A DNA stretch of 64,000 bases, from contig OZ024740.1 in NCBI GenBank assembly GCA_964016885.1, positions 86,862,001-86,926,000 on the forward strand, in the 5' to 3' direction. The translations under genes were made by a program, and so were the position numbers. How positions within the stretch are numbered: the stretch's first letter is position 1; every line of letters begins with the position of its first letter. This DNA comes from Eledone cirrhosa (lineage: Eukaryota). Below, piece by piece: positions 16,439 to 40,972 of this stretch. Under the pieces are notes generated by a model that worked only from the letters and a program-made list of their open reading frames with translations, was not told where the DNA came from and did not search any database.

Positions 16439-17408
16439 AATGGAAAAAATGAAATTTCATTTCTCACTCTTAGTATGGCCGATACCTAAATGTAAGTATG
16501 TACAAGTACATACATATATGTATACAGACGTATATATATACATACATGCACACATATATATATGTATGGGTTTACTGAACATTCATCATAATGTTCGGTT
16601 TGTTTGTAAACAAACAGCCCGAATTAAGCTGTACAGTGTTCGACAACCATCGTTGCCCTTTTGTTCAACACTGACAAAGGAAAAATGAACTAGTTTCTAG
16701 CTTATTAGCTGTCATCAGCACCGTATACCTTCCTGTCCGTCGATTGAATGTTTGAAAGTATATACTTTCCCTATGCATATTAACGGCTGAGCAGCCTAAT
16801 TTACATATCAAGTGAGTTAGTCGGCCGGGCGTACCGAAAACGATAAATGGAAAAAATGAAATTTCATTTCTCACTCTTAGTATGGCTGATACTTAAATGT
16901 AAGTATGTACACCTACATACATATATGTATACAGACGTACAGTAGTATGTATATACATACATACATGCACATATATATATATATGTACGTATGGGTTTAC
17001 CGAACATTCATCATAATGTTCGGTTTATTTGTAAACAAACAGCCCGATTTAAGCCGACTAACTAACTCGATACGCAAATTAGGCTGCTCAGCCGTTAATA
17101 TGCATAGGGAAAGTATATACTTTCAAACGTTCAATCGACTGACAGGAAGGTATACAGTGCTGATGACAGCTAATAAGCTAGAAACTAGTTTATCTTTCCT
17201 TTGTCAGTGTTGAACAAAAGGGCAACGATGGTTGCTAAACACTGTACGGCTTAATTCGGGATGTTTGTTTACAAACAAACCGCACATTATAATAAATGTT
17301 CGGTAAACCCATACGTACATATATATATATGTGTGCATGTATGTATGTATATACATACTACTGTACGTCTGTATACATATATGTATGTACGTGTACATAC
17401 TTACATTT
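16438..17408. repeat. Composite direct/inverted repeat A-B-A-B'-A' (unit ~407 bp)
   Basis: A starts recur at 16438 and 16845. B (16621-16825) is inverted at 17052-17260, followed by an inverted A to ~17408. Confidence 0.85.
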
Positions 17409-34336: not shown

Positions 34337-34423
<87 letters not shown>

Positions 34424-34449
34424 CAGGTAAAAATATTATATATATATAT

Positions 34450-34760
34450 ATAATTTATTAGAATTGGTGTTCTGAAATAGCGATATATATATGAATGTAT
34501 ATATAGTGTATTTTGCAATACACTGTATGCTTAATTAAACATTTTGAAGACCTTACGCTATTGTTTTAAAGTAATGACTATGTCACTTCTTTTTTCAGCA
34601 AACAAAGGGAGATAAGCTGACAGATCTCTGTTTCGTACTGTTGGTACTCCTCAGAGCTTACCACTCCCTTTGCTTGCTGAAAATTATGAATGTTAGATTC
34701 TTATAGAATTCCAGTAATAATCAGGAACTGATTATACAGAGCGGTTGCTGGTCCAGCAAT
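34450..34760 (-). mobile_element. Retrozyme-like non-coding element (copy 1)
   Basis: ~310-nt element containing an HHR. It is homologous to, and circularly permuted relative to, 40195-40546, and it abuts (TA)n. Confidence 0.8.
34592..34683 (-). ncRNA. Canonical type I hammerhead ribozyme
   Basis: Minus strand: caaagggag-tgg-taagct-CTGAGGA-gtac-caaca-gtac-GAAA-cag-agat-ctg-TC-agctta-t-ctccctttg. GUC cleavage is predicted between 34619 and 34618. Stem I is extended by ttcagcaa/ttgctgaa. Confidence 0.92.
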
Positions 34761-34761
34761 G

Positions 34762-34975
34762 AGTATCTCAGCCTTCAATGACTGGTAAGTAGTGTCAGTC
34801 GGTGTCTCCAATACGAGATCCTTAATAATTGGGAGAAGTGCCGGAGGAATGGTACTAAGGACGAGGGAACGTTGCTGTGCACGACGACGTTGTTAGCCTC
34901 GAAAAATGCTTCCATTTGAGCGAACCATAACTTCACATTGCCTGTGTAAGTAGGGAGAATAGAATGAGATGCCAT
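34762..34975 (-). pseudogene. Ty3/Gypsy gag N-terminal fragment (frameshifted)
   Basis: LPTYTGNVKLWFAQMEAFF..; in the shifted frame IKDLVLETPTDTTYQSLKAEIL, typical of Gypsy gag N-termini. Confidence 0.7.
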
Positions 34976-35097
34976 TGGTGTAATCTCTGTAAGAGGCCAA
35001 AATGCGTCTCCGTCAAAACAAATCCCTCAAACAAGAGGGGAAAAAAAAAAATCCGCTTGTTTTTCTCCAGAAGTCATGAGTTACGTCCCTTGGGGAC

Positions 35098-35436
35098 TGT
35101 AGTGACCCCTAGTGTCAACAACAGAAGTAAATGGAGTTACGTCCCCATGGGGACTATATATAGAGACAGCCAAAGCGCTCTATCTCTCTTTTCCAATCGC
35201 AGCAGCCCTGGAGAACGGAGGCGACTTCGCCCAGAACACGTGGGATGCAAATACCAGCCTACTCCAGTGAACATGTTAAGAGCAACTCTTTTTACTACCA
35301 ACAGCCTCATGAATCAGCTACACCATTACATCGTTCAACCTTCACAACTTGTGGTAATATGTTTATCATTCTATTTTGACTTCAATGAAGTAAACCTTTG
35401 TATATAAACCAAAAAGCCATTCTTGTTATTCCTACA
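35098..35436. mobile_element. Putative LTR
   Basis: TGTAG...CTACA termini, TATA-like tatatatag at ~35156 and AGTAAA near the right end; adjacent to the gag fragment. Confidence 0.55.
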
Positions 35437-35493
35437 ACTATTATCTATACTAATACCATTCTTCTAAAATATTACTGACCCCACCAGTTACCA

Positions 35494-40194: not shown

Positions 40195-40545
40195 TTAATT
40201 AAACATACAGTATATTGCCAAATATACTATACATGCATTCATGTAAACATCGCTATTTCAGAGCACCAATCCTAATACCTAATTTTTGCTGGACCAGCAA
40301 TCGCTCTGTATAATCAGCTCCTGGTTATTACTGGAAATCTATAAGAACCCAGCTTCTATAATTTTCGGCAAAGGCAGGGGAGTACGTGGTTCTGATGAAT
40401 GCCAACCAGCGTGAAACAGACTGTCAGCTGCTCTCCCTTCTTTTGCTGAAAAGAAGTGACATAGTCACTACTTTAAAACTGATACCGTATGGTCTTCTAA
40501 ATGTTTTTAATTAAACATACGGTATATTGCCAAATTTACTATACA

Positions 40546-40546
<1 letters not shown>
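40195..40546 (+). mobile_element. Retrozyme-like element (copy 2): 312-nt monomer plus 40-nt terminal redundancy
   Basis: ttaattaaacatac(a/g)gtatattgccaaat(a/t)tactatacat at 40195 and 40507, an internal HHR, and a run into (TACA)n(TA)n. Confidence 0.85.
40362..40452 (+). ncRNA. Type I hammerhead ribozyme
   Basis: gggag-tac-gtggtt-CTGATGA-atgc-caacca-gcgt-GAAA-cag-a-ctg-TC-agctgc-t-ctccc. GUC cleavage is predicted after 40425. Confidence 0.85.
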
Positions 40547-40633
<87 letters not shown>

Positions 40634-40637
<4 letters not shown>

Positions 40638-40972
40638 GCACATGGCTTAGTGGTTAGAGCATTGGCCTTGCAATCAAAAGGTTGTGAGTTCAATTCTCAG
40701 ACTGGGTGATGTGTTGTTTCCTTGAGCAAGACACTTTATTTCACATTGCTCCAGTTTACTCAGCTGTAGAAATGAGGTGATAGGGACTGGGGTCCATATC
40801 ATACCACTGCAAAGTGGTCGTGGAGGTGCCACGGCAATAAAGCACCCAGCACTCACTGTAAATGAGGTTGGTGTTAGGAAGGGCATCCAGCTGTAGAAAT
40901 CAAGTCAGCATCAGTTCCCGTCCCACCCTTGCAAGCAGGGAAAAAGCGGACGTAAAATGAAATGATGATGAT
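40634..40972 (+). mobile_element. SINE family B, full length, in (TA)n
   Basis: Near-identical to 6853-7194. Confidence 0.9.

Follow-up and report, generated by a model that had tools for sequence, protein, structure and literature searches.

In the 64,000-nt stretch of Eledone cirrhosa DNA analysed here (the window; contig OZ024740.1, positions 86,862,001 to 86,926,000), positions 34457-34759 of the minus strand hold a slightly 5'-truncated copy of a 318-nt non-coding repeat unit, running from u214 round to u204 (u1 is the C of CUGAGGA) and 95% identical to the unit of the dimer at locus L031; the unit length was read from a natural head-to-tail dimer. Within this copy, on the same strand, a type I hammerhead motif with a 26-bp stem I occupies 34592-34683, as judged from anatomy, folding, a structural descriptor and covariation. 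Towards its 3' end the copy contains an internal (TA)n (34483-34492, minus strand) at which other copies stop, then a 26-nt tail (34457-34482, minus strand), and beyond the insertion's 3' end, at 34437-34452, lies a (TA)n tract that is its likely target. On the 5' side there is a gypsy-like remnant (34761-35468, minus strand) made up of an LTR-like part (35066-35468) and a leader with a broken gag-like start (34761-35064), with weak DUF7041 matches below the cut-off in two frames. A second, older member of the repeat family (80% identity, 1.2 units, of a subfamily with a short stem III) lies on the plus strand at 40195-40562, with its core at 40392-40425; it is followed by (TACA)n(TA)n and then by a tRNA-like stretch at 40641-40704.

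Read on the minus strand, the motif has CUGANGA, GAAA and UH arranged round a three-way junction with stem I open, as expected of type I. The core CUGAGGA lies at 34654-34648 (C3 to A9, with G5 at 34652 and G8 at 34649) and leads into stem II, in which GUAC at 34647-34644 pairs with GUAC at 34638-34635 (pair probability 0.93) under the loop CAACA (34643-34639). The following stretch, 34634-34619, holds GAAA (34634-34631), stem III, formed by ACAG (34631-34628) and CUGU (34623-34620) with the loop AGAU, and C17 at 34619; the predicted cut falls between 34619 and 34618. Stem I has six proximal pairs (34660-34655 with 34618-34613), an internal loop in which UGG (34663-34661) stands opposite U1.7 (34612), and a distal part of 20 bp that reaches 34683 and 34592. 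U1.7 is a candidate tertiary partner of the last base of loop II, an A, a role given to these two bases in the available text of PMC11875169; it is a U in all 22 intact-core arms of the flank-selected sample defined below, and in the window copy it faces G34661, so that a G-U wobble is possible. The structural descriptor found two sites in the window, this motif (34592-34683) and the core at 40392, and none in 300 dinucleotide shuffles. The sequence-only reading had placed the core, the three stems and the GUC cut at exactly these positions, and its description of a full-length canonical type I hammerhead is backed by the anatomy and by covariation among subfamilies. A hit to an Rfam hammerhead model, which that reading had named as a check, did not appear: the hammerhead models of release 15, RF00163 included, gave no match in the window at the gathering threshold, where only chance snoRNA and miRNA rows were returned, and none in 34400-34900 at E<=10. 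RF00163 does match a different hammerhead family within the same genome.

Structure prediction gives a divided picture of this motif. The segment 34580-34700 folds at -43.5 kcal/mol (z -6.1; 0 of 200 shuffles equally good). The minimum-energy structure, at -43.0 kcal/mol, is a non-hammerhead fold in which the C-A-G-A of stem III is taken up by U-C-U-G from the junction and core, and the hammerhead fold lies at -42.5 kcal/mol with U1.7 paired to G34661 or at -41.4 with U1.7 free. Stem III has a pair probability of 0.28 in the window copy, and the inactive fold is predicted at 0.65 there and at 0.23-1.0 across 12 arms from several subfamilies. The competing UCUG/CAGA helix is the alignment consensus and shows no covariation; because energy models ignore tertiary contacts, it neither proves nor excludes activity. 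Cleavage of a monomer by the window hammerhead is plausible given its 4-bp stem III, and an isoenergetic inactive fold competes with it. The predicted circles of three natural monomers have circular minimum free energies with z of -6.2, -5.6 and -2.8 (60 shuffles each) and are 58-62% paired, much of the pairing being contributed by stem I. A hairpin with an 8-bp stem at window positions 34502-34521 (minus strand), just before the internal (TA)n at which short ends stop, is a candidate recognition signal.

The unit belongs to a large family in this 3.0-Gb genome. A 30-nt flank word has 1,753 exact genomic matches (reversed control 0), and the copy number is at least that; exact cores number 69 for the window's subfamily and 84 for a second one (reversed controls 0). 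From these more than 1,700 copies, 135 loci were fetched, 129 of them distinct after removal of six duplicates; the rows left out were L025-L027, L138 and L139 (the same places as other loci), L041 (a segmental duplicate) and L071 (the window itself). The flank-selected sample comprises 40 loci, the first listed places on C1 among the 1,753 matches minus four already fetched or known from their cores. A comparison with window positions 34457-34759 gave matches at 30 of 30 fetched loci. Natural units measure 314-318 nt, have a GC content of 0.32-0.35 and carry one type I hammerhead each and no linked ORF. Set against the majority letter in each column of 66 loci, the window copy departs at 6 of 303 columns and is therefore young. 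Insertions are mostly dispersed and 0.5-1.5 units long, the longest arrays seen reaching about 3.5 units; segments of 500-1,097 nt consisting of the unit only occur at 12 of the 129 loci, an array of three hammerheads at 314-nt spacing was found, and at least two consecutive complete hammerheads are present at L009, L046 and L136, whereas the window copy holds one. One insertion appears in four copies spaced about 44 kb apart (G000:C2:338330083-338463079), a tandem segmental duplication. A pattern scan of metagenomes gave 0 matches, and the literature on hammerheads, Penelope elements, cephalopods and retrozymes yielded no description of this 318-nt family, which retrozyme supplements or repeat libraries may list.

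Several comparisons among copies bear on selection on the ribozyme. When 16 rows of the window's subfamily are compared with 16 of the second, both sides have changed in 7 of 33 pairs, and 94.7% of cells are paired as against 42-54% in slid controls; two subfamilies are two lineages, so the seven double changes do not count as independent branches. Among the arms of the flank-selected sample, 22 of 47 keep the intact core pattern, with several stem II types among them, and in an alignment of 27 intact-core rows three of the four stem II pairs have changed on both sides. A tree of 31 copies, built with the core and stems II-III excluded, sets three stem II changes on three separate starred (supported) branches. 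The rows of alignment A2 were chosen for an intact core; there the core letters are invariant and stems I and II covary. The 66 loci of the column comparison were chosen by core match, so their per-column core conservation is not counted as evidence. Stem III is invariant, with no double changes, and is therefore uninformative for covariation. The same tree nests the window's GUAC/GUAC type of stem II inside AUAC/GUAU, and stem III lengthens along the same path; the root is a midpoint root only, so the direction is taken from the nesting and from the shorter end branches in the clade with a long stem III. In older subfamilies stem III is 3 bp long and is capped by a triloop or by the palindromic loop GAUC.

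The ends of the insertions fall into two main classes. Among 225 unit segments of at least 60 nt in the 129 loci, 101 have a 'short' 3' end (u163-187, at the internal (TA)n), 88 have a 'long' one (u196-212, after the tail) and 36 end elsewhere. Segment ends grade into (TA)n. Of the 48 long ends in the first 66 loci, 43 have a (TA)3 no more than 20 nt beyond them, as do 41 of 53 short ends; among the remaining 19 ends it is 5. Head-to-head inverted pairs are present at 74 of 129 loci (76 pairs in total), and 47 of the 54 classifiable pairs combine one short with one long end (binomial p 2e-8 against an even split). The window copy has a long end and the (TA)n, without an inverted arm. The family as a whole thus displays 5' truncation, a head-to-head inverted arm, one tailed end and a (TA)n target. 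The available text of PMC8557442 and PMC3846280 describes insertions of Penelope-like elements (PLEs) in the same way: they are truncated at the 5' end, where an inverted copy is joined, form partial tandems, bear a tail of 30-40 bp at one end and favour (TA)n. A template starting at the hammerhead cut site was considered and rejected: six 5' ends lying 4-19 nt short of the site among 66 loci were not significant in 129, where the upstream cut site showed no pile-up of 5' ends (6 of 17, p 0.17). The insertions therefore show no sign that cleavage shapes the template.

The genome contains several PLE families, with Neptune-like and Hydra-like as putative clade names, and those that we read carry minimal hammerheads of their own, different from that of the unit. 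A young intact family, arranged in 4.2-kb tandems, combines a 775-aa frame and GIY-YIG domain with a minimal hammerhead, and shows both end types, with 12 short and 16 long ends in 30 loci. In two loci of this young family (L127, L128; G000:C26:20691500-20701400 and C4:322581000-322590900) the 4.2-kb tandems are arranged head to tail with the minimal hammerhead, an upstream frame of about 450-500 aa overlaps the 775-aa frame, and many intact copies exist genome-wide. In another family (L079-L084, L087-L092, L129, L130) the PLE frame is followed by a long AT-rich 3' region that ends in a hammerhead above the RF00163 cut-off, and the insertions are likewise inverted and (TA)n-ended. Comparison of the unit with three PLE families revealed no homology (best E 1.3), only adjacent unit copies and AT-rich pieces; any reading of the unit as 3' terminus of the 775-aa PLE, the RF00163-matching family or the PLE fused in L069 was accordingly rejected. 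At L069 (1994-2663) an arm of the repeat unit and an arm consisting of a 5'-truncated PLE frame fragment form a head-to-head chimera, a single case that could have arisen when two RNAs integrated together or by deletion afterwards. Upstream of the unit, 66 of the 87 arms reaching u217-227 run into the end of a previous unit and 14 abut an inverted arm; of the rest, one visibly continues and six, the window copy included, abut unshared flank, and no non-unit upstream sequence is shared among the 87.

The gypsy-like remnant is interrupted at the 5' junction of the unit, and six other copies of it extend about 0.7-0.9 kb past that point. A connection of the gag-like remnant upstream with the unit was rejected because the unit is in none of seven other gypsy-like loci; since the other copies continue and lack the unit, the two are chance neighbours. 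Those other copies look like a short LTR-bounded form of about 2 kb. The gypsy-like LTR points at the hammerhead and could be a source of read-through transcripts. Elsewhere in the window, two minimal hammerhead-like motifs with a one-pair stem III and a palindromic CUAG loop stand head to head at 16680-16718 (minus strand) and 17160-17198 (plus strand), probably another Penelope-type insertion. Locus L094 (2539-4411; G000:C4:68945100-68947100) holds a tandem array of at least five 468-nt units with a hammerhead-like core in each, possibly a second retrozyme family.

The motif alone is ordinary, since short animal repeats commonly hold type I hammerheads and these have been described. The metazoan non-LTR retrozymes (Cervera and de la Pena 2020, PMC7229834) resemble the 318-nt family, as far as the main text of that paper goes, in a non-coding, low-GC unit of 150-450 bp with one type I hammerhead each, in head-to-tail copies, in having no LTR, PBS or PPT, and in coexistence with PLEs that bear minimal hammerheads. 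The family described here, with arrays of at most about 3.5 units seen against up to 62-mers in coral, consists mostly of dispersed insertions of 0.5-1.5 units and not of long arrays; circles and cleavage, demonstrated in PMC7229834, are predictions for the present family. The inverted tailed arms and the (TA)n targeting are absent from the main text of PMC7229834 (0 occurrences of 'inverted' and of 'microsatellite'). The retrozymes of Li, Clavereau and Pollet (2026; 10.64898/2026.07.22.740005) are alike, in the available text, in an average unit of about 316 bp, in the excess of monomers over arrays and in their co-occurrence with PLEs; they are tied there to pLTRs by sequence, whereas we found no homologous pLTR and the link is the insertion layout, which that text leaves undiscussed ('tail' 0 times, 'inverted' just in a reference). 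In those portions of the retrozyme literature, mobilisation by PLEs is argued from co-occurrence and pLTR homology (PMC7229834, 10.64898/2026.07.22.740005).

The EN+ PLEs, as presented in the available text of PMC8557442 and PMC3846280, share with the 318-nt family the 5' truncation, partial tandems, inverted copy, one-end tail and (TA)n bias, and a hammerhead near the 3' end; non-autonomous head-to-tail derivatives of PLEs are also known there, such as MRC1 of Chlamys. The unit differs from EN+ PLEs as characterised in those texts in having no ORF, a tail of 26-36 nt, and full rather than minimal stems I and III. The sequence-only reading had set the motif apart from minimal PLE hammerheads, which is right only in part, since the motif sits in a high-copy non-coding retroposon with Penelope-type insertions. 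The Sm-alpha hammerhead of Schistosoma mansoni, according to the available text of PMC6155905 and PMC11875169, has the same type I topology, an unpaired U seven bases past the cut and a loop II that ends in A; in comparison, the window hammerhead, a predicted ribozyme, has no RF00163 score, G at N7, a 5-nt loop II and a 20-bp distal stem I.

We consider the locus to be a complete type I hammerhead in a 318-nt non-coding unit that is likely a non-LTR retrozyme, copied in trans by a Penelope-like reverse transcriptase/endonuclease into (TA)n, and we give this reading a probability of roughly 0.78. By its sequence and layout the family appears to belong with the non-LTR retrozymes; the family itself is apparently new, the kind already known. 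A source array would be transcribed, and successive hammerheads would cut at GUC to give unit-length RNA, perhaps circularised, as the available text of the retrozyme literature suggests (PMC7229834). A Penelope-like enzyme would then prime cDNA at a U/A-rich stretch, which lies about 140 nt past the cut for short ends and about 165 nt past it for long ends, and synthesis, to judge from the layout of the insertions, would run back over the hammerhead and pass the junction between units until it dropped off at a random point. Copying back across the junction means that a circular or multimeric template is needed. The window copy, with its single hammerhead, would therefore be a dead-end product that might cut a read-through transcript and could release no monomer. 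Cleavage is not to be taken for granted in such units: in the available text of 10.64898/2026.07.22.740005, eight of nine predicted retrozyme dimers gave no cleavage product.

The copies could instead be the 5'-truncated tail ends (pLTRs) of an autonomous PLE whose coding part was not among our loci. The insertion layout equals that of this genome's PLEs, 19 of 135 loci have a fragment of a PLE frame no farther than 2.5 kb from the unit, and our sample covers about 130 of more than 1,700 copies. In these roughly 130 copies, however, no unit is continuous with an ORF (an RT and GIY-YIG frame); ten loci with nearby PLE frames, read by eye, involve several families and either have the unit separated from the frame by (TA)n or another repeat or have it joined directly to different PLEs at the truncation point; long arms always run into a further unit, up to 1,097 nt; and the PLE families read bear different, minimal hammerheads. 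We regard this origin as unlikely. Also improbable in our judgement is that the unit is a non-autonomous PLE passenger with a hammerhead that is mostly inactive or active only as a dimer, its stems being kept for RNA shape or enzyme recognition rather than for fast monomer cutting. Such a passenger would accord with the competing UCUG/CAGA helix, which is both minimum-energy fold and alignment consensus, with the short stem III and the triloop or GAUC loop of older subfamilies, with the absence of a 5'-end pile-up at the cut site and, in the available text of PMC8557442, with the spread of Naiads without canonical hammerheads, but the core is invariant and stems I and II covary in alignment A2 (rows picked for an intact core), the competing helix lacks covariation, and the energy models leave out the tertiary contact.

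That the window copy has been domesticated as a cis-acting ribozyme, for example ending transcripts from the upstream LTR remnant or processing a host RNA, seems very improbable. The copy is intact and the LTR-like remnant upstream has the same orientation, but the 2% divergence from the subfamily majority is as expected for a young insertion, and there is no sign of locus-specific conservation and no host gene identified at the locus.

The subfamilies may also record how the ribozyme of this family changed. One older subfamily shares its stem II, UUGC/GCAU, with the minimal hammerhead of the active PLE, a match of eight letters that is only a hint. We put forward, tentatively and as the less probable possibility, that the retrozyme hammerhead began as a weak, PLE-like form and was rebuilt, one subfamily after another, until it was competent as a monomer: in stem III, 3 bp and a triloop would have given way to the palindromic GAUC loop and then to 4 bp and a tetraloop, stem II would have passed from NCGC/GCGU through ACAC/GUGU and AUAC/GUAU to GUAC/GUAC, and the G10.1-C11.1 pair would have been gained last, in the window's own subfamily.

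What the 318-nt family adds to the known retrozymes is the PLE insertion signature itself, the inverted arm, one tailed end and (TA)n, on a non-coding unit. The intact PLE frames of this genome could serve in a mobilisation assay, and the subfamilies are a natural set of hammerhead variants for comparing cleavage rates. Should the stepwise rebuilding be true, they would make up a natural series in which the tuning of a ribozyme by a parasite of Penelope elements could be measured and, together with the inverted tailed insertions, would be a direct genomic sign of retrozyme integration by PLE enzymes.
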